A stretch of 32,000 nucleotides of DNA, from assembly GCA_035631875.1 (NCBI GenBank), contig DASQHX010000009.1:137558-169557 (forward strand), in the 5' to 3' direction. The stretch's first letter is position 1; every line of letters begins with the position of its first letter. Position numbers and translations under genes: made by a program. Positions 1,618 through 16,485 of this stretch are shown here, one piece after another. The stretch is from Nitrosopumilaceae archaeon (lineage in GTDB: Archaea; Thermoproteota; Nitrososphaeria; Nitrososphaerales; Nitrosopumilaceae). Below the pieces are notes generated by a model that saw only the letters and a list, made by a program, of their open reading frames with translations, did not search any database and had not been told where the DNA came from.

Positions 1618-2811
1618 TTATCCCCTGCTCAAAGTTGACACTATTTTGATAACATCCCCGTTTTTTAATTGATGCTGTGCCCCTATCCTCTGTTTTGTTT
1701 TAGCATCTACTGCATGCAAAAATCCCTTTGCCAAGTCAGCATGCACTGTCTGGGCCAAGTCTTTTGCTGTAGAACCTGGAAACAACAATCTTGCATCTGG
1801 CAATACTTCACCATCCTTGTTTGAAAGCTTGGTTTCATCTTCAACAGGATACACAGTGATTAGTTTGAGAAGATCAAAACATGCAGAATTTAAGATCTGC
1901 TGCACTCCTGTTGTTCCAATTTTAGTAATTACCTTGTTTGCAAGATCAAGAGCCTTTTGTTGTTGTGGGTTTAGATTTATTCCATCTTTTATCTTGAAGC
2001 TTTTTTCTCCTGGAGAATAATCAACGATACCACTCTTTGATGCCTTTCGTAAAAGCAGTTCTGTTTCTGCACTGCATGCAATTACTGGTCCATGTGCTTT
2101 TAGCTTATCAATTACAGACATATCATGACACAGATCTGCCTTGTTTGCAGCGATTATCATCGGTCTTGTTTTTTTTCTTAATTCTTTTACAAAGGTGTAC
2201 AGATCATTTTCAGTCCAATCTACAGGTTTTTTCATTTGCAGGTTTAGATGCTGAATTAAAATTTCAATGTCATATTCTTTTATGCCAAGTCCACTGAATC
2301 TTTGAGCTATTCCTTGCACAAGCTTTGCACCTTTGCTTTCCATTTCTCGCGTTAGCTTTTGCCATTCACGCTGCAGGATTTGTTTCATCCACTGATCAAA
2401 CTCTTCTTCAACAAATTTTGCATCCTCAAGTGGATCATGCGTTCCTGCGGGAATAGAGTGACCTAGAATATCAGTGGAACCGGAAGCATCAACTACATGA
2501 ATTAAAACTTCGGCTTGTCTTGCATCATCTAAAAATTTGTTGCCCAATCCCTTGCCCTCATGTGCACCAGGAACAAGACCTGCTACATCAATTAGTTTAA
2601 CAGGGATAAATCTAGTTCCTCCTACACAGAGAGGATGTTTGTGATTAATTCTAAAATGTTTGCATGCACATTCTGTCTTTACATATGCAATTCCTACATT
2701 TGGCTCAATTGTAGTAAACGGATAATTTCCAATTTGAGCAGTAGTCTCTGTTGCAGCTGAAAAAAAGGTAGATTTACCAACGTTTGTTTTGCCCAGCAGT
2801 CCTATTTGCAT
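1618..2811 (-). CDS. ychF: Obg-family P-loop NTPase, YchF/OLA1-like, with C-terminal TGS domain
   Basis: 397 aa. G1 [10 protein letters not shown]2 FTTIEP, G3 DVAGLV, NKAD (G4), C-terminal TGS-like GDVIKIVS. Its stop lies 1 nt from the kae1 start, so the two are probably co-transcribed. Confidence 0.85.
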
Positions 2812-2884
2812 GGGAATCTTTCTAATGGTTACTCTTATTAGTATTGCAGAAATCGTTTAATCCAATTTGATTTGATGGTATGTA

Positions 2885-3439
2885 TTGTCTAAAGTAATAA
2901 CTGGAAACCCCGGAGTGGGAAAACACACTGTAGCAAAACAGATTGCAAAGAATCTAGACCTTGACCTTATCGACATAAACGAGGTAGTTATAGAAAGCGG
3001 CATATTTGTGCGAAGGAAAGAAACACTAGATGTAGATACAAAAGATTTGCAAAAAATTCTAGAGAAAAAAATTACAACCCATTCTCTCATAGTAGGACAC
3101 TTGGCTCCATATGTAATACCAAGAAATAAAATCAAGACAGCAATAGTTCTAAGAAAAAGTCCATATAAGTTGATTTCTGTTTATAAAAAAAGAAAATACT
3201 CTAAACAAAAAACAATAGAAAATTTGGGAAGCGAGATTTTAGGAATAACATTTTATGATACTTTGAAAAAATTTGGTTCAGCAAAGACTCATCAAATTGA
3301 TACTAGTCTTAGTTCAGTTTCCAAAGTTGTTAAAAGAATCGAAGTGATTTTTGAAAAAAGTAAATTTCAAGAAGACCGAGTCGATTGGCTTGGATTAATT
3401 TCAAAAAAAGGAGATTTGAAGAGGTTCTTTCCCTACTAA
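2885..3439 (+). CDS. putative adenylate kinase / nucleoside-triphosphatase (AK6/Fap7-like)
   Basis: 184 aa, TTG start. The Walker A motif ITGNPGVGKHT sits at the extreme N terminus, and size and layout are typical of archaeal Fap7-type kinases. Confidence 0.7.
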   Translation: MSKVITGNPGVGKHTVAKQIAKNLDLDLIDINEVVIESGIFVRRKETLDVDTKDLQKILEKKITTHSLIVGHLAPYVIPRNKIKTAIVLRKSPYKLISVYKKRKYSKQKTIENLGSEILGITFYDTLKKFGSAKTHQIDTSLSSVSKVVKRIEVIFEKSKFQEDRVDWLGLISKKGDLKRFFPY

Positions 3440-3471
3440 CTTCAAATAATGCTCCACAGATGATATAAGAA

Positions 3472-4989
3472 ATGTTTGAGATTAAAAAGAGCGATCTTGC
3501 TGCCAGAATAGGAATATTACACACAAATCATGGCAAAATTGAGACGCCAGCCTATGTACCAGTGATTCATCCCGTAAAACAGACAATTCCTCCAAAAAAA
3601 ATTAGAGAGATGGGTTTTGATCTTGTCATAACAAATGCTTACATCACAATGAACAACTATGGAGATGAGGCAGCAAGACGTGGAATTCATGACATCATAA
3701 ATTATGATGGTGCAATAATGACAGATTCTGGTGGTTATCAAGTACTAGAATATGGAAAAGTTGACGTCGATCCCAAAGACATGGCGTTATTTGAACAAAA
3801 AATAAGAACTGATTTTGCAATTCCACTTGATAGACCAACTGGATATGGTCTTTCAAAAAAAAGAGCAAAGTCCTACGTCGATCACACGCTCAGAGTTTCC
3901 AAAGAAACTCTTGACAATTCTGAAGAAAACGGTCAGATCTGGCTAGGTCCAATTCAAGGTGGTGAGCACTTTGATCTAGTAAAGAGATCAACAAAAGCTT
4001 TGGTAGAATACGGGTTTAAGATGTTAGCTCTTGGCAGTCCAGTTGAATTCATGGAATCATATGAATACAAACTTCTTGCAAATATGATAATAACAGCTAA
4101 AAAACAAATACCTGATTCTATTCCTTTACATCTTTTTGGTGCAGGCCATCCATTAACAATTCCATTTGCCGTTGCTCTTGGATGTGACACATTTGATTCT
4201 GCATCATACATGCTCTATGCAAAACATGGCAGGTACATTATGGAAGATAGCACCATGAGACTAGAGGACATGGCATATTTTTCTTGTAATTGTGAAGTGT
4301 GTTCAAAACATACTCCAAGAGAAATCCAGTCACTTGAAAATGTAGAAAGGATAAACCAGGTTGCACTACACAACCTGTACGCAATAAAAGCTGAAGTGGA
4401 TAGGGTAAAAGAGGCCATTCATGAGGGAAGGTTGTGGGAATATGTTCTTAAAAAGGCCAGATCACATCCCAAGCTTTTCGAAACTATAGATGTCTTTACT
4501 GAAAATCATCAGTATTTTATGAATACCACTCCAAGATTCAAGGAAAAAGCCATCTTTTTGTACTTAAAGGAAGACCAGTACCGCCCAGAAATAGCAGCAT
4601 TTCATAATACGGTTCGTAATTTCAAGTCAACCAAGGATACTGTAATAATAATACCTGATGGGACAATGCGACCGTTTTATCTTTCAGAAGAATATAACAA
4701 ACTAAGAAAAAAATTTGCCAAAAATTATGATGACATTCAATTCTGTCAATTCAATCCCTTCCTTGGAATAATTCCACTTGAAATATCTGACATGTATCCA
4801 GCTGCACACTATGTTATGCCAAGAACATCATTTAGTGAAAATGAATTTCCAGAGTTTACAGATACTTGGAAGAAATTCTTTACAAACAATGGCTTTAAAA
4901 CCGCATACATTGCAAATGATAAATTTCTAAAACATTATGCAAAAATGCTTCCAAAAAAGATCAAAATAAAATTTCTTAATCGAATTTAA
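3472..4989 (+). CDS. tgtA: tRNA-guanine(15) transglycosylase (archaeosine tRNA-ribosyltransferase, ArcTGT)
   Basis: 505 aa. FEIKKSDLAARIG...HGKIETPAYVPV, TNAY, catalytic DSGGYQ, Zn site CNCEVCSKH; colinear with characterised ArcTGT catalytic domains. Confidence 0.88.
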   Translation: MFEIKKSDLAARIGILHTNHGKIETPAYVPVIHPVKQTIPPKKIREMGFDLVITNAYITMNNYGDEAARRGIHDIINYDGAIMTDSGGYQVLEYGKVDVDPKDMALFEQKIRTDFAIPLDRPTGYGLSKKRAKSYVDHTLRVSKETLDNSEENGQIWLGPIQGGEHFDLVKRSTKALVEYGFKMLALGSPVEFMESYEYKLLANMIITAKKQIPDSIPLHLFGAGHPLTIPFAVALGCDTFDSASYMLYAKHGRYIMEDSTMRLEDMAYFSCNCEVCSKHTPREIQSLENVERINQVALHNLYAIKAEVDRVKEAIHEGRLWEYVLKKARSHPKLFETIDVFTENHQYFMNTTPRFKEKAIFLYLKEDQYRPEIAAFHNTVRNFKSTKDTVIIIPDGTMRPFYLSEEYNKLRKKFAKNYDDIQFCQFNPFLGIIPLEISDMYPAAHYVMPRTSFSENEFPEFTDTWKKFFTNNGFKTAYIANDKFLKHYAKMLPKKIKIKFLNRI

Positions 4990-5023
4990 AAATAATAAAA
5001 AAGAGTGCGAGAACAGATTCCGC

Positions 5024-5344
5024 TTATAGTGCGGCGTCTTCTGCCCAGCCTTTTACGAATACTCCGTTCTTGTGGAGAGGAACTGGTTGACCAGCAGTGT
5101 AATTCATTGGTCTCATCCAAAAGATTGCTTTTGTTGGGCAAACTCCGATGCATGCACCGTCTGAGATGCATCTTTCTGGATAAAAGACAAATGCTTTACC
5201 TCTCTTCCAACCCTCAACGGGCTTGACACGAAGTACGTCTGGACCAAGAGAAGTACAGATCTCTACGCAAAGCGCACAGCCTATACATCTTTGTTCATCT
5301 ATGTCTGGAATGATTGCTATTGGCATTCTGTTTTTGATCTTCAC
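5024..5344 (-). CDS. 2x[4Fe-4S] ferredoxin-type protein
   Basis: 106 aa with two cluster motifs, CIGCALCVEIC and CISDGACIGVCP. GTG at 5344; alternative ATG at 5326 (MPIAII). Confidence 0.8.
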   Translation of the reverse strand: MKIKNRMPIAIIPDIDEQRCIGCALCVEICTSLGPDVLRVKPVEGWKRGKAFVFYPERCISDGACIGVCPTKAIFWMRPMNYTAGQPVPLHKNGVFVKGWAEDAAL

Positions 5345-5448
5345 CGTTTGCTATTTAAACCATCTGCAAAATCCATAACAGAGTTATAGAAATTTTTCAC
5401 AATAGAATATAGAAAATAAAAAACAAAAAAGAAAGTATAATGATTATT

Positions 5449-5670
5449 TTACTTCTTGGTTTGACGCATTGCGTCTATTTGTCCGCTCGTTACCCAATCA
5501 AGTAATTCAGCGGCAGAAGGATTTAGATCACCCTTTTGATTCATCATATTATGAACCCAAATCCAATTTATCTGGTTTAGTAATGGTTTGTTTCCCTCAT
5601 CGCCCTTTCGAACTTTGTCTCGAAGGTCTTTTGGGATGGTATTCCACCATTGTTCAAAGGTTCTACCCAT
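5449..5670 (-). CDS. small hypothetical protein (73 aa)
   Basis: ORF with balanced, Trp-rich soluble composition (FEQWWNTIPKDLRDK...). The overlapping plus-strand ORFs look like shadows. No function recognised. Confidence 0.45.
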   Translation of the reverse strand: MGRTFEQWWNTIPKDLRDKVRKGDEGNKPLLNQINWIWVHNMMNQKGDLNPSAAELLDWVTSGQIDAMRQTKK

Positions 5671-5785
5671 GGTCAGATCATCTTTATTTGATCTAATTAA
5701 GTCTTTTGTAAATTATAAAGATATTATAATTGACGGATTGAAAAACGCTAAAGGTTTAAAGGTCCTTTGAGAAGACTTTGAATTC

Positions 5786-7042
5786 TTGCAAGTAAAAGTA
5801 CTTGGGGCTGCCCAAGAGGTAGGTAGATCGGCATTTCAAGTTAATTGTGATGGCGCTAATTTTCTTTTGGACTATGGTGTTTCACTGGGAAAAGAACCAG
5901 CATATCCAATTCATGTAAGGCCCAAAGATATCAATGCAGTAATTATCACACATGCGCACCTTGACCACTCTGGTAACGTGCCGTCACTTTTTGTAAATGG
6001 CGGCACAGACGTTTATGCCACCGCACCAACACTTGATCTCTCTAGACTTTTGATCGAAGATATGTTAAGACTAGGAAAGAATTCTCTTCCTTTTGAATTT
6101 CCTGAAGTTACCAATATGATCATGCATTCTAAAGAGATAGAGTTCAAGCAAAAAATTACTCGCGGCAATGCCTCCTTTGAACTCCACGAGTCAGGACATG
6201 TTGTTGGTGGAGGTTCAGTCATAGTAGAATCTGGAGATAAGAGACTCTTCTATACTGGTGATATAAATCCACGAGGATCTAGAATGCTACGAGAAGCTGA
6301 TCTTGACTTTGGCGAAATTGATTTAATGATTACAGAAAGTACGTATTCCCAGACTGATCAGATGCCACGAGAAGAATCTGAGGAGAAATTCATTGAGTTT
6401 GCTTACGAGGTTTTAGACAGAAAAGGTTCTCTTTTCGTACCTTCGTTTTCTGTAGAAAGATCACAAGAAATTGCATGTGTCCTAAAAAACGCCAAATTCA
6501 AGCACAAAGTGATCATGGATGGAATGGCAGTCAAGGTTAATGAAATAATGCTTCGATATCCAGAATATTTACGTGATTCAAAGGTATTTGCAGATTCAAT
6601 CAACCATGCTGAATGGATAAGAGGAGAGCAGGAAAGAAAACGCGCTCTAAAAGAACCATGTGTAGTAATCTCCCCTGCTGGAATGTTAGTTGGCGGTTCT
6701 GCGGTTTATTATTTACAACAGCTAGCACTTGACAAAAAAAATGGGATAGCTCTTGTATCATATCAGGGTGAAGGCACACCTGGCAGAAAATTATTGGAGA
6801 CTGGCAAGGCGAACATTAGAGGAAACGATGTCAAAGCAGAAGCTGAAGTAAGACAATTCGAATTTTCTGGGCATGTTGATAGAACTGGTCTTTTTGACAT
6901 GATGAAACGAATCAAAGGAAATCCAAAAGTTCTGACGGTTCATGGAGACAGTGATTCATGTACTAAATTTGCAGAAGAGATTCATGAGAAGTTTGGGTTT
7001 GACGCCATAGCGCCAAAATTGGGCGATGAGATTACCGTTTAA
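5786..7042 (+). CDS. beta-CASP family metallo-beta-lactamase ribonuclease (aCPSF2-like)
   Basis: 418 aa, TTG start. HAHLDHSG (motif 2), ESTY, a later H and the C-terminal VHGD are typical of beta-CASP RNases. The length matches the short archaeal aCPSF2 group, which lacks KH domains. Confidence 0.85.
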   Translation: MQVKVLGAAQEVGRSAFQVNCDGANFLLDYGVSLGKEPAYPIHVRPKDINAVIITHAHLDHSGNVPSLFVNGGTDVYATAPTLDLSRLLIEDMLRLGKNSLPFEFPEVTNMIMHSKEIEFKQKITRGNASFELHESGHVVGGGSVIVESGDKRLFYTGDINPRGSRMLREADLDFGEIDLMITESTYSQTDQMPREESEEKFIEFAYEVLDRKGSLFVPSFSVERSQEIACVLKNAKFKHKVIMDGMAVKVNEIMLRYPEYLRDSKVFADSINHAEWIRGEQERKRALKEPCVVISPAGMLVGGSAVYYLQQLALDKKNGIALVSYQGEGTPGRKLLETGKANIRGNDVKAEAEVRQFEFSGHVDRTGLFDMMKRIKGNPKVLTVHGDSDSCTKFAEEIHEKFGFDAIAPKLGDEITV

Positions 7043-7043
7043 A

Positions 7044-7892
7044 ATGCAAGAATTTTCAAAAATAAATATAGATAGTACTATCAATAGCGGTCAAGTTTTT
7101 CTCTGGGACAAAATTGATGGAATATGGCATGGGATAAATGGTACAGAGGTTTTAAGAGTAGAACAAAATCCTTTTGATATAACTTCATCACAAAAAAAGG
7201 TCAGTAATTTTTTCAGACAAGATGACAATATGAAAAAAATTCTAAAAGAGATAAACAAAGACAGTCTTGTAAGATCTGCCGTAAAACACTTTCCAGGTCT
7301 AAGATTACTCAGACAAGATCCATTTCAATGCTATATCTCTTTTATTTGTTCATCAAATTCATCTATACAAAACATTAAACAAATGTTAAAACGACTTTGC
7401 CGAAAATTTGGTAAGAAAACAGATTTTGACGGTCATGAATTTTTTACTTTTCCTGATGTCGATAAGCTTGCAAAGGCCAGCCTGAATGATTTGCTTTCAT
7501 GCGGTCTTGGATTTAGAGCAAAATACGTAAAGAATGCGGCAATAACTGTTAATTCTGGTACCATAGAGTTTAATTTGTTAAAAAAAACAGATTATAATTC
7601 AGCAAAACAAGAATTAAAAGAGATTTACGGTATTGGGAATAAAGTTGCAGATTGCATACTCTTATTCTCACTTGAAAAATTAGAGGCATTTCCAATTGAT
7701 AGGTGGACACAAAGAATTCTCCAGAAATATTATTCAAAGAAATTTTCTGGTTTGATAGAAAAATCCCTCACGGAAAAAAATTATGAGTGTATCCATGAAA
7801 AAATCATAGAGTATTTTGGAGCATATGCAGGATATTCACAACAGTTTCTTTTCAAAATGGAAAGAGACCTAAACAAAAAAAGTTGGTTGTGA
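7044..7892 (+). CDS. ogg: 8-oxoguanine DNA glycosylase / AP lyase (HhH-GPD, Ogg family)
   Basis: SGQVFLW N-terminal motif, FICSSNSSI, helix-hairpin-helix GIGNKVADCILLF followed by PIDRW (catalytic Asp region). The ORF track starts at 7026, overlapping the upstream stop; the ATG at 7044 is equally possible. Confidence 0.8.
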   Translation: MQEFSKINIDSTINSGQVFLWDKIDGIWHGINGTEVLRVEQNPFDITSSQKKVSNFFRQDDNMKKILKEINKDSLVRSAVKHFPGLRLLRQDPFQCYISFICSSNSSIQNIKQMLKRLCRKFGKKTDFDGHEFFTFPDVDKLAKASLNDLLSCGLGFRAKYVKNAAITVNSGTIEFNLLKKTDYNSAKQELKEIYGIGNKVADCILLFSLEKLEAFPIDRWTQRILQKYYSKKFSGLIEKSLTEKNYECIHEKIIEYFGAYAGYSQQFLFKMERDLNKKSWL

Positions 7893-7899
7893 AAAACCC

Positions 7900-7906
7900 T
7901 TAATAT
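7900..7906 (+). promoter_or_regulatory. TATA-like box upstream of tRNA-Arg(TCT)
   Basis: ttaatat is centred about 25 nt upstream of the tRNA 5' end (7928), the usual archaeal TATA-to-start spacing. Sequence pattern only. Confidence 0.3.
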
Positions 7907-7927
7907 GGTAACCCAGTGCCCAATCTT

Positions 7928-8002
7928 GGGCCCGTAGCTCAGCTTGGACAGAGCACTGGACTTCTAATCCAGTGGTCAAGGGATCGAAGCCCTTCGGGCC
8001 CG
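7928..8002 (+). tRNA. tRNA-Arg (anticodon TCT)
   Basis: Hand-folded cloverleaf: acceptor gggcccg/cgggccc, D arm gctc-agcttggaca-gagc, anticodon arm ctgga-cttctaa-tccag (TCT at 7963-7965), variable loop tggtc, T arm aaggg-atcgaag-ccctt, discriminator g. No encoded CCA. Confidence 0.85.
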
Positions 8003-8003
8003 C
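7991..8003. repeat. attL core (tRNA 3' end) ccttcgggcccgc
   Basis: Recurs as ccttcgggtccgc at 15447-15459 (12/13). The extended alignment 7984-8003 vs 15440-15459 is 15/20. Confidence 0.65.
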
Positions 8004-8010
8004 TTTATCA

Positions 8011-8024
8011 GTTTTAGCGCGTCA
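8011..8024. repeat. left sub-terminal inverted repeat gttttagcgcgtca
   Basis: Perfect reverse complement of 15419-15432 (tgacgcgctaaaac), 14/14. Confidence 0.8.
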
Positions 8025-8081
8025 TGTGACTTTGTCAACTATTTTCCGTTCGAAATAGACAACATTTTGATTCTGTGTTAT

Positions 8082-9452
8082 TTATTCTGTTTTCTTGTCG
8101 CCAATTTTCTGCAACAATTTTTGCAACAGCTCCATTTCTTCTTGTGTTAGACTTCCAAGTTTTTCTTTTGTTTCTTCTTTTTGTTTTTCAAGTGGAGGAA
8201 CTTCACCTTTTTCCAGATCAAGAAATTCTTCACATCGACTAAATGCATTTCTCATTTCATCAATGAGCGAGTCTGGAAGAATTCCTTTGTTGGTTGTGTA
8301 CTTGGCTTCCATGTTTCCCTTGTGTCCCATAAAGAATACGCGAAAGTCATGTGCTATTTTTCCGCGAGATTCAGCGATGAGTAGTTGCGTGTCAAAGAAA
8401 GCTCTTAGCACATACGGTCTCCACAGAAATCTTGGTCGCATTGTTTTGTGAATTTCCCTGCGAATTGTCAATGTCTCCACGAATCTTTTGCCGATGTTTT
8501 CTCCTCTATGTCTGCCATACCTTGTGAAGGGCGCTATGACTGGAGATTCAGGCAGTAAAGATTCTCCCGAAATTAGCCTCTCATTTAGATAGGCTAACAG
8601 CCTCTTTGTTCCAAAGTCTGTCAGGAAGGTATAGTATTCGTGATCTGCTTTTGAGAGTGTCTTTCTTACCACGATTCTTGGCTGTTTACTTGCAAATGTA
8701 GCCAGACCTTCTTTTATGACAAGTTCAGGTAGATCCTTTATCATCAGCCCGTCTGTCGCGTTGTAGTTTCCCATCACTTCAGGTCTTAGACCAGCTTTGC
8801 CAATCAGTGACATTATGGCACCAGCCCTGAGATTTGCCCTGCTGAAAAGTTCTGCAAGTTCGTTTCCTTGTGGCACTCTCTCTTTTTCTAAAGTTGGCGT
8901 CGAGTCTACATTTGCTATCTTGATTCTTCTTTTTACGAAGACATCAAAATGATGCAGCCATGACTTTACCGCAGTTATGGTTCCCTTGATGTATTGTGGA
9001 GCATTGCCTCTGCTTTCCATCCATGATATGTGGTCTTGTAGAAGATCAGTTACTTCCCTGACGTCTTTGATTCCCAATTCTGCAACTTGCATCGGTGTGA
9101 TCTGATGATCCTCGCAGAATTTGCTCAGCCTTCTAAGATTTATCTCGGCTGAATTTGGACTACCTCTTGCTACATTTTTGTACCATCGTCTTACGTCTGG
9201 ATCGGCTAGCAGTCTTTCTTTCTTTGTTGGACTCTTTCGAACGGTTTGTGTCTTGTGTATTGTCTCGTTGTATGTCAATTTTTTTCCCACATCAGACCGC
9301 ACGGCTCTGCGGTCCTCATCAGAGAAAGCAAGTGAGTTTGTAGTATTTACCTTTTTTATGATCTGCTCACAATTTTTCAATACAACATTATTGAATTTAT
9401 AGCAGTGAAGGTACACTATATTATTGGGCAGAAAACCAAAAAACCAATTCAT
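8082..9452 (-). CDS. tyrosine recombinase / integrase
   Basis: Box I AGLRPEV; box II HDFRVFFMGHKGNMEAKY (H-x-x-R, H, catalytic Y). The gene reads toward the tRNA. The start is uncertain: TTG 9473 in the ORF track, ATG 9452, or an internal TTG near 9380 behind a tataaa at about 9392-9401. About 70 aa of acidic coiled-coil-like sequence follows the catalytic Tyr. Confidence 0.85.
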   Translation of the reverse strand: MNWFFGFLPNNIVYLHCYKFNNVVLKNCEQIIKKVNTTNSLAFSDEDRRAVRSDVGKKLTYNETIHKTQTVRKSPTKKERLLADPDVRRWYKNVARGSPNSAEINLRRLSKFCEDHQITPMQVAELGIKDVREVTDLLQDHISWMESRGNAPQYIKGTITAVKSWLHHFDVFVKRRIKIANVDSTPTLEKERVPQGNELAELFSRANLRAGAIMSLIGKAGLRPEVMGNYNATDGLMIKDLPELVIKEGLATFASKQPRIVVRKTLSKADHEYYTFLTDFGTKRLLAYLNERLISGESLLPESPVIAPFTRYGRHRGENIGKRFVETLTIRREIHKTMRPRFLWRPYVLRAFFDTQLLIAESRGKIAHDFRVFFMGHKGNMEAKYTTNKGILPDSLIDEMRNAFSRCEEFLDLEKGEVPPLEKQKEETKEKLGSLTQEEMELLQKLLQKIGDKKTE

Positions 9453-9507
9453 CGAAGCTAGTCTAGCGTTCAAGGAAGACTCGAAAATTAAAAGATATGA
9501 TGTAAAA

Positions 9508-9987
9508 ATGCCTTTTTGCTATGCCATAACGGTAGAAACCAACGATCCCAATAATGCGATAATGCAGACTACATGGGAATATTTTCTTAAAGATGATTCC
9601 AAATTAGACGAATTGATAAAAGAAATAGAAAGCCAGACCTTCAAGGTCAAAGTTATCAAAATCGAGCCAGCCGTGAGACAACTTATAGATCTATGTCCTA
9701 GATGTCATAAGCGAGGAGTGCCAAAAATTGAGAAGAAGAATACTAATGACAACAGGGAACGATCAGGAAGATACAAAGAAAAAACATCATCACAAAAGAA
9801 ACGAGAGCCAGAGTTTTGGCTGACTTATGTCCACACAAAAACAAAAAAATGCAGAATTTGTCAATATACGAATACTCCCTATCCTACGTACAAACATAAC
9901 AAAATCGATATTGAAAAATACTTTTTTCCTCAAATTATAGGAAATATGAAAAGAGGATCTCTCTGGTATTCTGATCAATCACAGTAA
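9508..9987 (+). CDS. hypothetical protein with split zinc-ribbon (CPRC ... CRIC)
   Basis: ORF 9424..9987 in the track. The ATG at 9508 (MPFCYAIT) avoids overlap with the integrase 5' end. CPRCHKRG and KCRICQY cysteine pairs are separated by a Lys/Arg-rich linker. Confidence 0.5.
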   Translation: MPFCYAITVETNDPNNAIMQTTWEYFLKDDSKLDELIKEIESQTFKVKVIKIEPAVRQLIDLCPRCHKRGVPKIEKKNTNDNRERSGRYKEKTSSQKKREPEFWLTYVHTKTKKCRICQYTNTPYPTYKHNKIDIEKYFFPQIIGNMKRGSLWYSDQSQ

Positions 9988-10244
9988 GGACATTCTACAG
10001 TTTCTTTTGGATTACGTACAAACGCAATTAACTTTTGACCACATCGAATGCAAATGTATCTCCTTTTGTGATGTTTTTGTGATTTGTACCATAATACCTC
10101 CGACCAATGGATCCGTTTTGTGCGAAATCTGTACTCTTCATCAAAGTAAAAGACAAACCATCGCTTCTTTGCACCGTTTTTTCCGTGTTGTCTTACCTCT
10201 GATCTTGGATGATACCAGCGTTTTGATACTGAAATTACAATCAT
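9975..10244 (-). CDS. small basic protein with C-terminal zinc ribbon
   Basis: 89 aa, very basic, with CIRCGQK...ECPYCD (CxxC-x17-CxxC). Candidate DNA-binding or regulatory protein of the element. ATG at 10244. Confidence 0.5.
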   Translation of the reverse strand: MIVISVSKRWYHPRSEVRQHGKNGAKKRWFVFYFDEEYRFRTKRIHWSEVLWYKSQKHHKRRYICIRCGQKLIAFVRNPKETVECPYCD

Positions 10245-10394
10245 TTCTGGATACTAATAGGATACTTCTTTTTGTCTATAAACTGGTGAAGGTACGAAAT
10301 TCTAATTATTCCAGAAAATTCATTGATTTTTTGTTACATTATGTGACATAATCCGAAAAGAATCCGTTAAATCCTTGACTTAAGTATGTGAGTC

Positions 10395-10976
10395 ATGGCT
10401 CTGACTAATGTAAACTTCCAAGATGAATTTGTAAAAGACTATTTCAAAAACCCATTCCTTTGGTGGAACTTTATCATATTCATATTTACTACATTCAACA
10501 CACAGCCTACTTTTAACACCATTTTGCAAAATATTATTATCAATTCTTACTATGTTCAAGTTCTATTTGCTTGTCTTGGTATTGCTCTTTTTCTTATGTT
10601 TTATCCCATAAGAAGAAGTCTAAAAAAATTAAACAAGAAAAAATATTATGTACATGCATCGCTTTTAGTTGGCGTTTTATTCGTACATGTTGCCTTTTTT
10701 ATGTCTGATCCTCCAGTAATTTTGGGCAAACTTTGGTCCGAAGTCATTATCAAGCCAGATTTATTCGACCAATCAGTATACACGTTGATTTTAGTCGGAT
10801 ATCTCGGAGTTCCTTTTTTGTATGCGTTTGCAACTACCACAGTTAAAAAATCATTGTTAGAAGCAAACCTCCCAATAGATGACAAACCCTCAAAGAATCT
10901 GGCATTTGGAGGAATGACAGCGTTGGTTACTGTAGTAATGTATTTTCTTTATACTTTCAGTACGAGTTTTCATTAG
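10395..10976 (+). CDS. hypothetical multi-pass membrane protein
   Basis: 193 aa with about 5 hydrophobic segments. No recognised motif. Confidence 0.5.
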   Translation: MALTNVNFQDEFVKDYFKNPFLWWNFIIFIFTTFNTQPTFNTILQNIIINSYYVQVLFACLGIALFLMFYPIRRSLKKLNKKKYYVHASLLVGVLFVHVAFFMSDPPVILGKLWSEVIIKPDLFDQSVYTLILVGYLGVPFLYAFATTTVKKSLLEANLPIDDKPSKNLAFGGMTALVTVVMYFLYTFSTSFH

Positions 10977-11024
10977 ATTGAATTAAGATCGAAGGAAATA
11001 ACAAGTGGATGACCATAATTCAAA

Positions 11025-11675
11025 ATGCAAGAAAAAATGATCTTCAAAGATGACATTGAAAAAATGTATAAACTTTACCTAGATACTGAAAGACAATTTG
11101 TTGAATTAAGCCGAATAATTCCGTTAGACAACAAACCTGAAACTTATTCTCCAAGATTGTATAGCATATTTCATACTGCTTGCGGTCAAGTAGAAAATAT
11201 GCTTAGATTAATCTGTGATAAATTAGAACTCAAATATCTTAACAATGATTTTCCAAGCTATTATGAACAACTTAATGTTCATGGCATGCTTGAAAGACAC
11301 AAAGTTATCTTGAAGGAAGCAAACGAACCAATTCAACCATTTATCATAAAGGATGGAAAATCTCCAGATTGGTGGAAAGGATATAACAAGGCAAAACATG
11401 CTTTACCAGAAGGTATTGTTGAAGGAAATATTGGAAACACAATAAATGCACTGGCGGGGATTTGTGTACTACACCAAATTTCATATTTTGCTGTTCATCC
11501 TCCTGAAAATGTACTAACGAAGGAAAATTGGTTTGAAATGGAAATTGACCTAAACAATATTGAAACCCCCGCATATGTTGTATCACCAAGTAATCGAGCT
11601 GATGAAAATACTATGTTTTATGCAATCACTACGTATAGTGGAATACATGAGAAACATAATCAAAATAAGTTATGA
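11025..11675 (+). CDS. hypothetical cytosolic helical protein, possible HEPN-like (DUF4145-like) domain
   Basis: 216 aa. YSPRLYSIFHTACGQVENMLRLI followed later by WWKGYNKAKHA resembles the helix-1 acidic residue plus the (R/N)xxxH motif layout of HEPN-type domains. Pattern-level only. Confidence 0.55.
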   Translation: MQEKMIFKDDIEKMYKLYLDTERQFVELSRIIPLDNKPETYSPRLYSIFHTACGQVENMLRLICDKLELKYLNNDFPSYYEQLNVHGMLERHKVILKEANEPIQPFIIKDGKSPDWWKGYNKAKHALPEGIVEGNIGNTINALAGICVLHQISYFAVHPPENVLTKENWFEMEIDLNNIETPAYVVSPSNRADENTMFYAITTYSGIHEKHNQNKL

Positions 11676-11720
11676 GTCTACAGTTGACAGTGATAAAAAT
11701 TCAAGGGATGTGGTATTAAA

Positions 11721-12473
11721 TTGACAGAACCTAACAGCAATCGAAAGATACGATGGAATCATCTTTTGATTTGTCTAATAGTGATAGTAAATATTTTCAT
11801 TTTTTCTTCTATTGCAATTGTAATTTTTGACGTACCGTTTCCGTTTATTAATCCTCATAATCCGCCTATACCTCTTCGATTTAGTTTATCGTATCCACCT
11901 CCAAAAGGCGTTGTGCTTCAAGATCCAAATATTTACGTTGATGTTACTTTACAATCTAATGATACCATTGCGGAAGGCACTCCTGTTCTTCTTACTGCCG
12001 TTGGAAGTCTTAGTGAAAGATTCTCCCAGAATGTTAGTCAGGTGATGGTAGGATTTGAAGGTTCATTGCCTACCTATACTACTTCTAATCCAACAGATGT
12101 TGTAACAATAAATCCTATTGGACCAGCATTTGGTAGTGTAGTCCTTACTCCATATTACGGAAAAGAGAATCATGCAAAATCTTCTTTTGGGATGGGTGGA
12201 CCTGACTTGTTAGAGAAATCACAAATCATTGAATGGAATGTTCAAGGAGATTATTCTCCAACTCTTGTGATATTATTCAATAGCCCTCTAAACCTAACAC
12301 AGCAAAAGGATACAAATATTCGTGTTCATGTCAGCCCTGCTAGTGTTTTACAAGATGAAAGATTAGGTCGTGAAAATATTGTGATCTCACTTGCACTTGT
12401 AGGATTTGAATTTGGTGCAAGTATTATGATCATGAGAGAATTGATAAAATCTATTCAATCCCGAACGAATTGA
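11721..12473 (+). CDS. hypothetical exported/bitopic protein (N- and C-terminal TM segments)
   Basis: 250 aa, TTG start. It has an N-terminal TM (LLICLIVIVNIFIFSSIAIVIF), a beta-rich middle with N-x-S/T sites, and a C-terminal hydrophobic segment. Confidence 0.5.
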   Translation: MTEPNSNRKIRWNHLLICLIVIVNIFIFSSIAIVIFDVPFPFINPHNPPIPLRFSLSYPPPKGVVLQDPNIYVDVTLQSNDTIAEGTPVLLTAVGSLSERFSQNVSQVMVGFEGSLPTYTTSNPTDVVTINPIGPAFGSVVLTPYYGKENHAKSSFGMGGPDLLEKSQIIEWNVQGDYSPTLVILFNSPLNLTQQKDTNIRVHVSPASVLQDERLGRENIVISLALVGFEFGASIMIMRELIKSIQSRTN

Positions 12474-12505
12474 AGTAGTAATAATGAGAATAACGTGAGG
12501 GAAGG

Positions 12506-12572
12506 AGTTTTGTAGCGAACCTTACAGGACTCGATTCTAAAATTATGAATGAGTCAATTCCTATTTCGATGA
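12506..12572. repeat. junction F: att-arm-like segment (12506-12523) fused to cassette 3' module (12516-12572)
   Basis: 12506-12523 is 17/18 identical to 15433-15450. 12516-12572 is 51/57 identical, ungapped, to 14610-14666. Confidence 0.8.
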
Positions 12573-13055
12573 ATTATTTTGAGATTTTATAGGTTCTACT
12601 AAACCATATCCAAAGCATTTAGTGTCGTAATCAGCATACATCCACGAATACTGCATTGGCTTGCTACAATCTATGGTCGGCACCAAATAGGCATAATAAT
12701 ATATCAAAAATCCTCCCATACTGCCAAAAGTTATTACAACTACAATAAGGGAGAGAAGGACTTTCCTACCAAGTATATTCACTCTTTTTTTAATTATGGG
12801 ATACTGTTTTTCAAGTTCTTCTTGTTTTGCCAAAACCTCTTCTTTTGACGGAATCAAAAAAAACCAAGCAACCGGAACTTTAAACCCATATTTCCACAGA
12901 AGGATTCCTAGCGCGTACATTACTATAAAAACTACAACGAAAAAAGCGAAATAGTTTGCTAAAGAGAAGTAGGCTGTTCTAAGATAAATGTACGACAAAA
13001 AAGAACCGATTATTAAAAATGTCATGCTGAAAATAAATCTGATTTGTGGGCGCAT
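12561..13055 (-). CDS. small membrane protein, cassette gene g1
   Basis: The ORF track gives 12561..13103 with TTG; the ATG at 13055 (MRPQIRF) is more likely. 4 hydrophobic segments with a charged KEEVLAKQEELEKQ linker. Ends NNSSK-stop inside the conserved 3' module. Confidence 0.55.
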   Translation of the reverse strand: MRPQIRFIFSMTFLIIGSFLSYIYLRTAYFSLANYFAFFVVVFIVMYALGILLWKYGFKVPVAWFFLIPSKEEVLAKQEELEKQYPIIKKRVNILGRKVLLSLIVVVITFGSMGGFLIYYYAYLVPTIDCSKPMQYSWMYADYDTKCFGYGLVEPIKSQNNSSK

Positions 13056-13104
13056 ATTGTTTGATTTGATACCAATCTTAAAGAATAAAGTATGTCTGTG
13101 CAAG

Positions 13105-13143
13105 ATACAAACTTGTCATCTCATCTCTCCAACAAATCATAAC
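13105..13143. repeat. junction A: cassette leader module
   Basis: atacaaacttgtcatctcat (13105-13124) is identical 20/20 to 15214-15233. tctccaacaaatcataac (13126-13143) is identical 18/18 to 13494-13511. Confidence 0.85.
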
Positions 13144-13214
13144 TCAGAAGTCATGTAAGTTGTCTTTTATTACATACTACCTGATTTTAGCAGAGTCAAG
13201 GATCAAGATGCTAA

Positions 13215-13493
13215 ATGGCAAATGAAAAACAAGTCAAATTGTGGGAACAAATCTTACTTGCCATTGTTGATCCTCTTTGGATATATGGGTTTTATCGAAT
13301 CCACAAACTAAGAAAAGGAGCTATAGTAGGGGGTGTGAGCTTAGCCACCTCTTGGATAATTTCAGATAAAATAGCAGTATGGAGTTGGTGGTATGTCATG
13401 CTGTGGATAGCAACATCAAGTTTCATAATTTATTATATGATAAAATGGTCCAAAGAATGGAATAAAAAACTAGATAGTGCTCCTAAACTTTGA
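13215..13493 (+). CDS. small membrane protein (92 aa), opposite orientation, inside an insertion in junction A/B
   Basis: ATG start, 2-3 hydrophobic segments, Trp-rich. The segment is bracketed by the 18-bp perfect direct repeat. Confidence 0.5.
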   Translation: MANEKQVKLWEQILLAIVDPLWIYGFYRIHKLRKGAIVGGVSLATSWIISDKIAVWSWWYVMLWIATSSFIIYYMIKWSKEWNKKLDSAPKL

Positions 13494-13538
13494 TCTCCAA
13501 CAAATCATAACGTAACTTCGCGTCTATTTCGATGAATT
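13494..13538. repeat. junction B: partial leader, short att-like stretch and a 15-nt remnant of the 3' module
   Basis: 13494-13511 = 13126-13143. gtaacttcgcgtc lies at 13512-13524. ctatttcgatgaatt (13524-13538) = 12561-12575. Confidence 0.75.
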
Positions 13539-13548
13539 TTTTTAAAAA

Positions 13549-13968
13549 TCAAGATATGTTAGAAGGCGTTTGTGTAGATTGATCGTACTTTCTTTTTCTG
13601 GAGATAAATGCTGGTACAGTAAATATTAGTCCTGCTATGAACAAATAAAGTAAGTTAGGACTACCAAATTTAATATACGCTAGTACACTTAGTACCAAAA
13701 AAATTGATTCACCAATAATGAATACTTTAAGGTTTGGTTTTTTCATTGGTTTAGAAGACTCTTTTCTCTCAACACCTTGAAAGAATTTTATCATGACAAA
13801 AAATAAGAGACCTATTCCCGCAAAAGATGATAACAACTCTATGCCCATGATATAATACCGTGTATCTCCGATTACAGGAGAGTCCTTTAGTCCATAGAGA
13901 ACTAAGAAACCTTGAATTATTAATACAAATCCAACAATCAATAAGACGTGATTTCTTTTCAATACCAT
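13549..13968 (-). CDS. small membrane protein, cassette gene g3
   Basis: The track gives 13549..13998 (TTG); the ATG at 13968 (MVLKRNH) is likely. 4 hydrophobic segments with a basic linker. Its upstream 40 nt are 34/40 identical to those of g1. Confidence 0.5.
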   Translation of the reverse strand: MVLKRNHVLLIVGFVLIIQGFLVLYGLKDSPVIGDTRYYIMGIELLSSFAGIGLLFFVMIKFFQGVERKESSKPMKKPNLKVFIIGESIFLVLSVLAYIKFGSPNLLYLFIAGLIFTVPAFISRKRKYDQSTQTPSNIS

Positions 13969-14014
13969 AACAATTTGGTATGATCTCTTAAAGAACAATG
14001 TATGTCATTGAAAG

Positions 14015-14058
14015 ATACAAACTTATTGTCTCATGGTATCTTTCCAATAAATCATGGC
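14015..14058. repeat. junction C: cassette leader module (diverged); contains the stop codon of g4
   Basis: atacaaacttattgtctcat is 17/20 to the consensus. aataaatcatggc corresponds to aacaaatcataac. No 3' module is present here. Confidence 0.7.
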
Positions 14059-14522
14059 ACTGTAGTTGGAGTACCTATACCAAAGTAAGATTTGACACGA
14101 GGTCTGTAAAAATAATAAATAATCAGTGCATCAATACATGCTCCAAAAACAATACCTCCAATATTTGATGAAATTGGATCTTCCCAGAAATTTAAGATAG
14201 TGTCAATAGCCAGTCCTAGTAGAATAAAGACAATTTCACCCTTCCATGCCCACTTACTACCTCTGAGCATTCCAATTGAAATAATGAAGGAAGTCACACC
14301 CCCCGCTACAAGAAAGCCTCCATATGCATATGAGAAGGGCCCTGAAAATAATGTTGAATTCCCGCCCAAGTTATTATTTAGATTTGCTATGAATGGTAAG
14401 AGTACCACTAACAATAAACCAATTAAGGAAGCAGAGATTCCTCCAATTATGCCAAGCACCCCAAGCACTGAGATCCCAAGAGGTCTTTCTAGTTTAGTTA
14501 TTGAAGGTTGTCCAGATTCCAT
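14052..14522 (-). CDS. small membrane protein, cassette gene g4
   Basis: 156 aa, ATG start, 4 Gly-rich hydrophobic segments, GMLRGSKWAW loop. Its first codons ATGGAATCTG are shared with g5. Confidence 0.55.
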   Translation of the reverse strand: MESGQPSITKLERPLGISVLGVLGIIGGISASLIGLLLVVLLPFIANLNNNLGGNSTLFSGPFSYAYGGFLVAGGVTSFIISIGMLRGSKWAWKGEIVFILLGLAIDTILNFWEDPISSNIGGIVFGACIDALIIYYFYRPRVKSYFGIGTPTTVP

Positions 14523-14570
14523 ATTTATGATTAGACTTGAAGACTAATAATCAGAGTGTGTTCTAATTTA

Positions 14571-14666
14571 GTACAAACCCGTCACTCAACTTTCTAACAA
14601 ATTATAACACGAGCCTTACAGGACTCAATTCAAAAATTATTAATGATTCAATGCCTATTTCGATGA
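14571..14666. repeat. junction D: complete junction (leader 14571-14608 plus 3' module 14610-14666)
   Basis: gtacaaacccgtcactcaac and aacaaattataac are leader homologues. The 3' module is 51/57 identical to 12516-12572. Confidence 0.8.
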
Positions 14667-15179
14667 GTCATTTTGGTTGTTGATTTTTGGTTGGTTATTA
14701 TTCCAATCTGTTTGCTTTCTTGCTTTTAGGAGGATAGGAAACATCGCGATTACTGAAACCAAGCCAATAGTAGAGAGAACAATAGGTGTCGTAGAATCAC
14801 CTGCGAAAAGAGAGTTAGACATAACGCCACTCTTAAAGAAGATTGAAGATGGAAATATGAATAATGAAAGTACCAACGATATTGCTGACAAACGCAAACC
14901 AGACCTTCGTTTACGAAATAGCAAGACAGAAGATATTATTGGAATCGATCCTATTGATGCAAGTATTATTGCGGGTAATCCAAACAATAGTAGAGCTTCT
15001 TTAGAATCTACGGTATATGGCAAGTCATAAGTAGCTAAAGTAAAAACGTACAAGGATATTACCACCATTATCGTACCTGAAAATAGTTGGAATACTGCCA
15101 AAATTGTCACATATAGATTAGGTCTGTGCCATCTAGATTCTTTAATGGGACTTTCAGATTCCATATTTTGTGATTCCAT
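14655..15179 (-). CDS. small membrane protein, cassette gene g5
   Basis: 174 aa, 4 hydrophobic segments, ends NDSSK-stop inside the 3' module. The second ATG at 15164 (MESESP) aligns with the g4 start and may be the true start. Confidence 0.55.
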   Translation of the reverse strand: MESQNMESESPIKESRWHRPNLYVTILAVFQLFSGTIMVVISLYVFTLATYDLPYTVDSKEALLLFGLPAIILASIGSIPIISSVLLFRKRRSGLRLSAISLVLSLFIFPSSIFFKSGVMSNSLFAGDSTTPIVLSTIGLVSVIAMFPILLKARKQTDWNNNQPKINNQNDSSK

Positions 15180-15213
15180 CTGGAGACTAATACGGTGAGT
15201 ATGTTCTATTGCA

Positions 15214-15253
15214 ATACAAACTTGTCATCTCATGATACTAAAAAAATCATAAC
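15214..15253. repeat. junction E: cassette leader module
   Basis: 20/20 identical to 13105-13124, followed by aaaaaatcataac. Confidence 0.85.
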
Positions 15254-15418
15254 GTACGATATTATCTAATCATCGGGAGTTTTTGGCTTTGGGCGGGGGC
15301 TCTCCCTTTTTACTCTTTTTTGATAAACTCGTTTGCTGTTTATTAAAATAAAAAATCAAAAAATTTGGATTATTAACAAATCTTCAATAAATTAATAAAA
15401 ATCAAAAAAAATTGGGGT

Positions 15419-15432
15419 TGACGCGCTAAAAC
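15419..15432. repeat. right sub-terminal inverted repeat tgacgcgctaaaac
   Basis: Perfect reverse complement of 8011-8024. Confidence 0.8.
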
Positions 15433-15446
15433 AGTTTTGTCGCGAA

Positions 15447-15459
15447 CCTTCGGGTCCGC
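15447..15459. repeat. attR core ccttcgggtccgc (degenerate copy of the tRNA-Arg 3' end)
   Basis: 12/13 to 7991-8003. It is a GC-rich string in an AT-rich intergenic region and is embedded in a potential hairpin cgcgaacc-ttcg-ggtccgcg (15441-15460). Confidence 0.65.
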
Positions 15460-15549
15460 GTCATTTTTAATTCAAAAACATTAACATGGTTTTCAAATTT
15501 GTTCATTTTTCTCACAAGTTATTTATCTTCATTATTTTACGCATATACT

Positions 15550-15900
15550 ATGAAAGATGTAGAAATAAAGATGGAAAGTTTGAACATAAAGCCTCATACT
15601 GAGATCAAAGGTAAGATTCAAGTGAATTATTCTGGTCGATACGACGGTGTTGTTGTGAACACACAGATATTAAATTCAAATCAACTCATAGTTTACAAAT
15701 CATATAACGGTAAAATTATTTCTCAAAATCTATCACGATTATTCATTAACAAAAACGATATGCCGCAAAACATGGTAGAATTTACAGCAATGATAGAATT
15801 TGAACCAAATCAAACTCATGATGTAAAATTTCGTGTATCCATAATACAAGAACATAAAGAGATTGAAAGTGACATTGTCTTTGCTAAGTTAATGCCCTAA
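15550..15900 (+). CDS. hypothetical beta-sandwich protein (arrestin-N/Spo0M-like pattern)
   Basis: The track ORF 15499..15900 starts at TTG; the ATG at 15550 (MKDVEIK) is likely. IKPHTEIKGKIQVNYSG...VVVNTQI alternation suggests an all-beta fold. Function unknown. Confidence 0.5.
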   Translation: MKDVEIKMESLNIKPHTEIKGKIQVNYSGRYDGVVVNTQILNSNQLIVYKSYNGKIISQNLSRLFINKNDMPQNMVEFTAMIEFEPNQTHDVKFRVSIIQEHKEIESDIVFAKLMP

Positions 15901-15943
15901 GAGCTGTTGATAATTCAAATTGTGAATCTAAATAGAAAGATGA

Positions 15944-16423
15944 TTAAGAAGTTGTAGCACCATGCACAACGTCAATCTCGCCTGTCATCCATGGATGTGG
16001 GTCACAATGATACTTTATTGTTGCCTCTTGAGTAAATAGAAATTGATATGTCGTTCCTGCCTTGATTATTCCAGGAGAGCCGAATTGACCACTATACGCA
16101 TCTTTGAATACACTACCTTGATCTGGTGTGACTGTGTGACCAGTGTCAGGACTGGTGTTTTTCCAAATAACTAGATTGTTTACACCAAGCTGAGACTCTA
16201 TTTTCTTCGGTACAAAATTTTGTTCTTGTTGTTGGTTTTCAGCACCTGGCACTATAGTTATAGTAGTTGCTTCACCAGGGTGCAATACTTTTTCAGGAAT
16301 TATTGGTTTTGCATTAAATTCAGGGACGAAATATAATTGATAATATGAAACTCCAACAGCAGCCCCAATTATGACTGCGATTAATCCTATACCATAAGCG
16401 TGACTTGAACTTGGAAGGCTCAA
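15944..16423 (-). CDS. membrane-anchored type-1 (blue) copper protein, plastocyanin-like
   Basis: 159 aa with an N-terminal TM anchor. Cupredoxin ligands: His in TGHTVTPD and C-x2-H-x3-M in HCDPHPWM. TTG start. Confidence 0.85.
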   Translation of the reverse strand: MSLPSSSHAYGIGLIAVIIGAAVGVSYYQLYFVPEFNAKPIIPEKVLHPGEATTITIVPGAENQQQEQNFVPKKIESQLGVNNLVIWKNTSPDTGHTVTPDQGSVFKDAYSGQFGSPGIIKAGTTYQFLFTQEATIKYHCDPHPWMTGEIDVVHGATTS

Positions 16424-16485
16424 CTGATAATAATTTTTTTGTTTGTCATATAAAGTTATTCGATCGTATGTATTAGAAAAATAAT

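Follow-up and report, generated by a model that had tools for sequence, protein, structure and literature searches.

A conserved repeat unit at module boundaries in integrated elements of soil ammonia-oxidising archaea

Much of the variable DNA in ammonia-oxidising archaea consists of integrated elements, and we know of no account of the route by which their cargo is assembled. The 32,000-nt stretch of Nitrosopumilaceae DNA analysed here (the whole of it is called ‘the window’) carries one such island, at 8004-15459, and the island poses the question in a concrete form. Within it, a short site at 12504-12532 separates the integrase and its companion genes, the ‘backbone’, from an array of unrelated small genes that have 5' and 3' modules in common, and this site looks like part of the island's own right end. 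Is it a joint peculiar to this island, or one copy of something more general? A sequence-only reading of the window had taken it for a chimera, formed in place from an attR arm and a cassette junction.

The island, its target and its integrase

The island is a homologue of the Nitrosotalea devanaterra element NitDev-E1 and lies at a tRNA-Arg(TCT) gene, its integration target (7928..8003, plus strand; ARAGORN and the Rfam tRNA family). A core scan finds a 13-nt direct repeat, CCTTCGGGYCCGC, 12/13 identical, at the two borders: the attL core, CCTTCGGGCCCGC, occupies 7991-8003 inside the tRNA gene, and the attR core, CCTTCGGGTCCGC, occupies 15447..15459 on the plus strand, with host DNA resuming beyond it. 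The att repeat begins at an identical point of the tRNA in all 10 family loci whose repeats are clear: it takes in the last two bases of the T-stem and everything from there to the end of the tRNA. (A second tRNA gene, tRNA-Arg(TCG), lies farther along the window, at 27276-27350.) The P' arm, tttatcAGTTTTAGCGCGTCATGTGAC (8004..8035, plus strand), follows attL and contains the arm motif CGCGTCATGTGA. The P arm, at the opposite end (15275..15446, plus strand), opens with a distal palindromic sequence, GGGAGTTTTTGGC...CTCTCCC (15275-15306), similar to the distal motif in the P arm of another family locus, L021. An A-rich tract comes next, then an inverted repeat (15419-15432), and the arm ends with what we call the left arm, AGTTTTGTCG (15433-15442), and a spacer, CGAACC (15443-15448). 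The inverted repeat is a perfect one of 14 nt, GTTTTAGCGCGTCA, whose two copies, 8011-8024 and 15419-15432, lie just within both ends of the island. The P arm whose inverted repeat matches the integrase side is the distal one, and this places the gene array inside the element, not beside it. In a circular form of the island, the two copies would flank the att core by ~36 bp; a comparable pair (11/14) is present in NitDev-E1.

Outside the island, the flanks on both sides are collinear with N. devanaterra, on the right over window positions 15360-16459. The counterpart there (LN890280; our locus L007) is NitDev-E1 (Krupovic et al. 2019; PMC6563490 supplement), described there as an ‘integrated element’ of 5,468 bp whose target is tRNA-Arg(TCT) and whose att repeat reads CGGGCCCGAAGG; the source gives, in the parts at hand, coordinates, att repeats and gene content for thaumarchaeal integrated elements. 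NitDev-E1 shares with the window an orthologous integrase, two conserved adjacent genes and the same flanking host genes. With its integrase beside a tRNA gene, its border repeats and host synteny outside, the island is a member of this described class of thaumarchaeal cryptic integrated elements.

The integrase, identified by its fold and its homologues, is a divergent tyrosine recombinase of 463 aa, encoded on the minus strand (8082..9473), 79 nt from the tRNA gene. It has more than 1,100 thaumarchaeal homologues, some of which are named site-specific integrase, and it is 78% identical to the N. devanaterra orthologue, assigned to arCOG01245, XerC/XerD (PMC6563490). A lookup of the exact protein matched the source contig alone. 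Searches by sequence, with the single protein and with a profile, found nothing meaningful in Pfam, PHROGs, NCBIfam or the PDB; only a fold search succeeded. An AlphaFold (AF2) model built from 31 homologues (mean pLDDT 70) was searched with Foldseek and matched XerA (5hxy, the best), Cre, VchIntIA and lambda Int, with E values from 3.5e-6; VchIntIA (2a3v) ranked below XerA and Cre, with similar scores. As modelled, the integrase has a XerA/Cre-like tyrosine-recombinase fold. R230, H375, R378, H384 and Y392, residues expected of the catalytic set, are invariant among the homologues. Residues 106-135 gave a weak PDB match to TAL-effector repeats (E = 1e-4), without a significant stretch, and this match of the N-terminal domain is probably a chance resemblance between helical repeats.

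The other backbone genes occupy 9424..12473. Two of them, at 9424-9987 (plus strand) and 9975-10244 (minus strand), are conserved with NitDev-E1 and with loci L008, L013 and L059; three more, at 10395-10976, 11025-11675 and 11721-12473, all on the plus strand, are variable. The backbone operon is divergent from the integrase and ends 30 nt before the site at 12504-12532. The site does border both the integrase backbone and a cassette-like array, as had been proposed.

The site at 12504-12532 and the cassette array

The site resembles attR. Positions 12506-12523, AGTTTTGTAGCGAACCTT, and 15433-15450, AGTTTTGTCGCGAACCTT, are identical at 17 of 18 positions, and the identity ends right after CCTT; direct reading bears out the sequence-only reading on both counts. 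Sequences within three mismatches of AGTTTTGTMGCGAACCTT occur at just two places in the 32-kb window, against an expectation of 0.05, and two matches were obtained in 0 of 100 shuffles. The relation to att is thus upheld: attR shares its left arm and spacer (AGTTTTGTCG-CGAACC) with the site, and continues with the tRNA end in place of a right arm. From 12516 onward, the sequence matches 14610-14675 (repeat D2) at 88% identity across 66 nt, so that the sequence to the right of the apparent crossover follows that module, again as claimed; the left side of the 14610 copy differs.

The site also has an architecture of its own. It is a canonical unit of what we call class A, on the plus strand (12504..12532), with a left arm, GAGTTTTGTAG (12505-12515), a spacer, CGAACC (12516-12521), and a right arm, TTACAGGACTC (12522-12532). 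In its full form the unit is 28 bp long, GAGTTTTGTAG-CGARYC-TTACAGGACTC, and comprises two 11-bp inverted arms around a 6-bp spacer; the range of lengths is 21-28 bp. In class A, GAGTTTTGTAG and CTTACAGGACTC form 11 pairs, of which three are G.T. The arms are related to the attachment arms of the element itself. Reverse-complemented, the right arm reads CGAGTCCTGTAA and agrees with the P' arm motif CGCGTCCTGTGA at 10 of 12 positions. This motif stands in the P' arm adjoining the integrase gene in L003-L005, and L002 and L007 carry CGCGTCCTGTCG; P' arms across L002-L007 carry CGCGTCCTGTGA/CG, and MAFFT aligns the units against P' arms. Four nucleotides, CCTT, are all that the unit and the tRNA core have in common at the putative overlap, and this counts against a role of the unit in recombination.

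How, then, was the joint at 12504-12532 made? The sequence-only reading derived it from recombination in this island, between an attR-type arm and a cassette-junction pseudo-att, at cgaRcctt. The 17/18 identity up to CCTT and the right side taken from the 14610 module fit such an event, the left flanks of units are replaced in other contigs (classes B-F), and exchange in the cgaRcctt region has a parallel in NitDev-E1, where a duplicated P arm also loses its identity to attR right after CCTT. But the same two halves, AAGGAGTTTTGTAGCGAG and YCTTACAGGACTC, make up the commonest class of unit in unrelated contigs, and they co-occur, near base-for-base, in many other elements and contigs as an 11-6-11 inverted repeat. 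Moreover, only ~20 nt of P arm are present at 12504, and the inverted repeat on the integrase side has its match in the P arm at 15419-15446. The two halves complement each other as arms and were therefore not joined in the window island, and we hold a unique local chimera to be very unlikely. Because the halves recur together elsewhere and form an inverted repeat, we read 12504-12532 as a canonical unit; attR, in turn, is better seen as the left arm and spacer joined to a tRNA end.

To the right of the unit lies the array. Cassette 1 (12533..13143, minus strand; repeats D1, D2, D5 and D8) comprises a 3' module (12533-12581), a gene for a small hydrophobic protein (12561-13103), and a 5' module (13076-13143) that ends in tctccaacaaatcataac. 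These 18 nt form a perfect direct repeat, at 13126-13143 and 13494-13511, that bounds a 368-nt insert on the plus strand (13144..13511; repeat D8) with a gene for 92 aa (13215-13493, plus strand); the segment has the look of a cassette that entered where the 5' module ends. Adjoining it on the plus strand (13512..13543; repeat D5) are sequences that, from their position, appear to be remnants of a unit, gtaaCTTcgcgt, and of a 3' module, ctatttcgatgaattttttt. The string at 13511 had been stacked by the sequence-only reading with four others, from the tRNA, attR, 12513 and 14608, as five related sites. The tRNA/attR direct repeat stands as it was stacked; the 13511 string, in contrast, has no profile support, as the unit profile does not detect it even at E <= 10. 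It occupies precisely the place expected of a unit, with the end of a 5' module (13494-13511) on one side and what remains of a 3' module (13524-13543) on the other, and is apparently a copy of the unit from which ~30 nt have been deleted. Cassettes 2 and 3 (13549..14609, minus strand; repeats D1, D3 and D8) follow, with genes at 13549-13998 and 14052-14522, and 5' modules at 13986-14051 and 14524-14609. A second unit, of class B (14598..14630, plus strand; core 14610-14626), joins the end of a 5' module, AACAAATTATAACA, to CGAGCCTTACAGGACTC. Cassette 4 (14627..15256, minus strand; repeats D1, D2 and D9) completes the array, with a 3' module at 14627-14675, a gene at 14655-15179, and a 5' module at 15185-15256.

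The proteins of the four minus-strand cassettes show no similarity to one another, yet the modules that flank them are 61-100% identical, and tandem duplication of a paralogous gene family was rejected on these grounds as the origin of the cassettes. The shared upstream module (...ATACAAACTTGTCATCTCAT...CCAACAAATCATAAC; ~70-100 nt, at the four 5' positions given above) is a candidate promoter plus leader. A downstream module is common to two of the cassette genes, their last six codons included, and in L096 and L119, too, units have the module of cassette 4 beside them. At 14598, the unit directly adjoins the end of the 5' module, and the same joint, between CCAACAAATCATAAC(GTA)+GCGAG and YCTTACAGGACTC, occurs in at least 10 other contigs.

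Units in relatives and metagenomes

The unit is a conserved repeat in integrated mobile elements of soil ammonia-oxidising archaea, and marks points at which modules are swapped, inserted and lost. The 29-mer GGAGTTTTGTAGCGAACCTTACAGGACTC, in which both halves are together, is present as three long copies in L002, and also in L008, L013, L016, L036, L049 and L059; the core, CGAGYCTTACAGGACTC, has five copies in L002 and two in the window. One copy in L002 is preceded by DNA homologous to window positions 15304-15356. A profile search finds units in 11 of 79 integrase-anchored loci, plus the window. In the pooled integrase-anchored set (units at E <= 0.01), all 19 units fall within the 518,651 nt on the cargo side of the integrase and none within the 559,183 nt on the opposite side; relative to the integrase, they all share one strand. 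When a metagenome collection was scanned with GTARCGNRYCTTACAGGACTC alone, 42 stretches were found, all with a GC content of 0.30-0.41, and many with several co-oriented units. The gene neighbours of these units encode Fn3/NHL/beta-propeller surface proteins, TPR, CAP and MFS proteins, and ORFans. The consensus of 61 non-redundant copies is (aaaataaaaaatttgga)AAGGAGTTTTGTAGCGAG-YCTTACAGGACTC-rAAcctt, and the 12-mer CTTACAGGACTC is near-invariant. Loci with more than one unit have them co-oriented, except L112 and the palindromic assembly L123. The latter has, at 1070-1214 and 3230-3374, a tRNA-Arg(TCT) gene from which 13 nt of P' arm lead to an A-rich tract and on to a class-A unit, and no integrase intervenes; this arrangement is present twice as a mirror image, and may be an assembly artefact.

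Other searches define the unit further. The 17-mer core, scanned against IMG/VR, gave one chance match, in GC-rich coding DNA; hence, the unit is no known viral feature. A literature search for the 12-mer returned unrelated primer sequences only, and neither a text search nor the relevant literature on such elements, in the parts at hand, yielded a description of the unit. Across 229 kb of unit-selected metagenome loci, no integrase homologue was found beyond L002's own contig; most of these loci are short, with the integrase expected several kb to the left, and so the link between unit and integrase rests on the genome loci. Degenerate repeats of ~16 nt, CCTTCAGTGGGTTCAga and CCTGTGAGAGTC, which resemble the right arm, occur after units in L083 (204-287), in L024 (locus positions 1008-1051) and in many right flanks; they could serve as additional binding sites.

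The unit is conserved across elements with integrases 55-95% identical and with different tRNAs, more strongly than the integrases and their tRNA cores are, which could mean that a shared host factor, and not each integrase, is its reader. Host XerA might be that factor: the unit would then be a dif-like site, and its modules would resemble those bounded by pdif sites in Acinetobacter, or elements that exploit Xer. Conservation across islands with different integrases agrees with this, as do the shuffling of the flanks and a layout, 11-6-11 (28 bp), equal to that of archaeal dif (PMC2958812). In the loci and metagenome stretches covered, however, the units are seen in island cargo only, where they are co-oriented and do not alternate like pdif, and their arms match the element's own att arms. 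We regard a XerA/dif site as quite improbable.

A second possibility concerns RNA. All units lie between genes, often 20-60 nt beyond gene ends and usually 20-100 nt beyond the stop codon of a plus-strand gene on the left and/or of a minus-strand gene on the right, and as RNA the class-A unit folds well (-15 kcal/mol, z = -3.4); given this position and this folding, the unit may have a role at transcript ends, alone or additional. The minus strand of class-A units continues into a T-run, TTTTTTATTTT, and T-runs are typical archaeal termination signals. Most transitions in the left arm, too, preserve G.U pairing on the minus strand. The unit might thus be mainly a transcription element, a 3'-end hairpin or terminator between cassette genes, with ordinary homologous recombination shuffling the genes around it; if it were only that, the finding would be an ordinary one. 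But variation in the stem is one-sided: among the 61 copies the right arm is fixed and the left arm varies (position 0/9 is T-A in 30 and C.A in 29), and compensatory changes are absent. For this reason, a hairpin maintained in RNA by covariation was rejected, and the lack of covariation favours a protein-DNA site over a structured RNA. The orientation of the units is, besides, fixed with respect to the integrase, regardless of how the neighbouring genes are oriented; their sequence is homologous to att arms; and an integrase-bearing element has inserted precisely in one of them, its P and P' arms intact (in L059, described below). Rfam has no match to the unit either: at E <= 1, positions 7800-15700 gave, besides the tRNA, a single weak hit (E = 0.54), to a family of lncRNAs that is unrelated. 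A mainly transcriptional role seems to us unlikely.

What happens at units can be read from their flanks. For 58 units whose two flanks each extend for at least 100 nt, clustered by local alignment (a gapless pairwise version was too strict, with 9 and 4 informative pairs), 39 pairs share the left flank only, 47 the right flank only, and 3 share both. Left and right flanks assort almost independently. Homology on the left extends to position -1, the base before Y, and homology on the right begins at about +13. One left flank (..ccgtaccgtacaacGACAAAAATAGTAACGAG), for example, is joined to four different right flanks, and the 3' module of the window stands behind four different left flanks (at 12504 and 14598 in the window, and in L096 and L119). 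L013 and L016 have 2 kb in common, at 85% identity, that start exactly at a unit, after unrelated DNA. That the two parts of the window island would be met separately in relatives, as the sequence-only reading expected, has turned out to be so: in L002, L007, L013 and L059, what is shared with the window is confined to the integrase-proximal part, and the cassette 3' module recurs beside a unit in L096 and L119 with other left neighbours.

Insertions and deletions at units include one whole element. Nested within a class-A unit of the tRNA-Arg(TCT) island in L059 is a second family element (2146-7579, locus coordinates; ~5.4 kb), which is of the tRNA-Val type, lies inverted and has its own integrase. 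At the left junction, ...GCGAGTCTTACAG is followed by ttttt..., and then by ~80% identity to a P arm in L021, that of its tRNA-Val element; this homology ends at CTGT. At the right junction, the C-terminus of the integrase and the P' arm are ~92% identical to those of L021, stop exactly at the first base of P', and give way to CAAACCTTACAGGACTC. The same unit, in L013 (8165-5718), holds a 21-nt scar only. The sequence gaactaacagatagt, beside the units in L013 and L059, was considered as a P arm and rejected, as the alignment is to the reverse complement of the inverted element's P' arm. A cassette-sized difference is seen between L104 and L103, which are ~96% identical on both sides and differ by a 268-nt segment inserted directly after the unit core; the segment is closed by a degenerate second unit, GAAACG--GACTCGG. 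In NitDev-E1 (L007, 6046-6735), a 75-nt duplication of the P arm, with two mismatches, flanks the CheY-like gene NDEV.0249. The first copy ends in CCTT and is followed by a one-gene insert that starts with a degenerate unit; the second carries the true tRNA core. The 2019 catalogue (PMC6563490), in the parts at hand, makes no mention of this duplication. The apparent points of crossover vary, from CCTT (the window and L007) to ACAG (L059) and GGACTCG (L104), and on this evidence short-homology recombination fits as well as site-specific exchange.

Tandem integration is a further source of att-like sequences inside islands. Tandem arrays are frequent in the family, with complete cores at the internal junctions (L008, L013, L016, L017, L021, L023, L031 and L036). 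In five of these loci (L008, L013, L016, L017 and L036), ~150 nt 3' of the integrase stop codon, the P' arm is preceded by a tRNA-Arg(GCG) core without a tRNA, from which it follows that these integrases belong to inner members of the arrays. Might the site at 12504-12532 be a decayed junction of this ordinary kind, a fossil attP-like site without function? The frequency of tandem arrays speaks for it, as do L031 and L095, where a unit stands directly after a tRNA-type core, in the position of P'. The true junctions of the family, though, retain the full core of 12-15 nt, and 12504-12532 has CCTT alone; the tandem integration suggested by the sequence-only reading does not account for the site. 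The near-invariance of the 12-mer in 61 copies of diverse context, moreover, argues for selection or ongoing spread, and not for decay. We consider a functionless fossil highly improbable.

Cargo turnover and comparison with known systems

The reading that we prefer, and to which we give somewhat better than even chances, is that 12504-12532 is one copy of a conserved recombination-site-like unit, found in the cargo of NitDev-E1-type tRNA-integrating elements of Nitrosotalea-like archaea, and that segments are inserted, deleted and swapped at such units by a tyrosine recombinase. The architecture of the unit, its homology to the att arms, and natural before/after comparisons together suggest which enzyme acts, and where it cuts. 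The family integrase would bind the units, each of which would serve as a core-type site with copies of the P' arm motif for arms, and strands would be exchanged in or beside the spacer and CCTT. The integrase of a relative might act instead or, less likely, host XerA. DNA segments, cassettes and whole sister elements would enter, leave or swap places at units, and the unit in the window would be the joint between a backbone, composed of the integrase and the divergent operon, and an array of four or five cassettes, with candidate promoters of their own, for unrelated small hydrophobic proteins. More tentatively, and with some doubt, we can imagine that Nitrosotalea-type archaea carry an integron-like form of gene capture on their tRNA-integrating elements. 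A Xer/Cre-like integrase, together with a portable 28-bp site made of inverted copies of its att arm, would insert, excise and reshuffle cassettes and sister elements, and so yield variable islands of small membrane and surface proteins beside tRNA genes.

The unit is short, conserved and directional; it mimics an att site, bounds modules that assort independently, and has served as the landing site of a sister element. Such a unit would supply a concrete mechanism for the turnover of cargo in archaeal islands, comparable to the attC sites of bacterial integrons or the pdif sites of plasmids, but built on an integrase that targets tRNA genes. For practical purposes, GTAGCGAGYCTTACAGGACTC is a simple sequence tag with which to locate islands of this kind in metagenomes.

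The closest known relative of the island is NitDev-E1, which has the same target, tRNA-Arg(TCT), and an att repeat of 12-13 nt at the same position in the tRNA; the cargo of the window island differs, apart from the backbone. Internal repeated units, a duplicated P arm and cassette-like arrays find no mention in the parts of PMC6563490 at hand.

A second comparison is with integrons. As in integrons, short, unrelated genes form an array next to a tyrosine recombinase, and between them a conserved, imperfectly palindromic site occurs in one orientation; the first site adjoins the backbone, and a cassette-sized insertion or deletion is seen at a site between L104 and L103. There are also differences. 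The site is 21-28 bp long here, whereas the attC sites of integrons, one after each cassette, are long imperfect palindromes of 57-141 bp with R''/L''-L'/R' boxes, and Rfam detects no attC. The cassettes of the window have conserved 5' modules of their own and lie in both orientations, whereas integron cassettes are promoterless and lie in one. Integrases of the window type, finally, also integrate the whole element into a tRNA gene, and ours is, by fold search, no closer to IntI than it is to Cre or XerA.

The plasmids of Acinetobacter carry discrete gene modules that are bounded by pdif sites in many combinations, with the sites in alternating orientation. Gene modules bounded by units also occur in many combinations, and in layout the unit, with its 11-bp inverted arms and 6-bp spacer, is like archaeal dif; but units are co-oriented, are found in tRNA-linked islands, and have arms like the att arms of the island integrase. 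A last point of comparison is with the secondary attachment sites and tandem arrays of archaeal integrative elements, reviewed in PMC8371274. As at such sites, an element of the family has integrated in a unit (L059), elements accumulate at one tRNA gene, and neighbours exchange modules. Secondary attachment sites, however, are normally chance look-alikes in the chromosome, whereas the unit is a conserved sequence that the elements themselves carry, in several copies.
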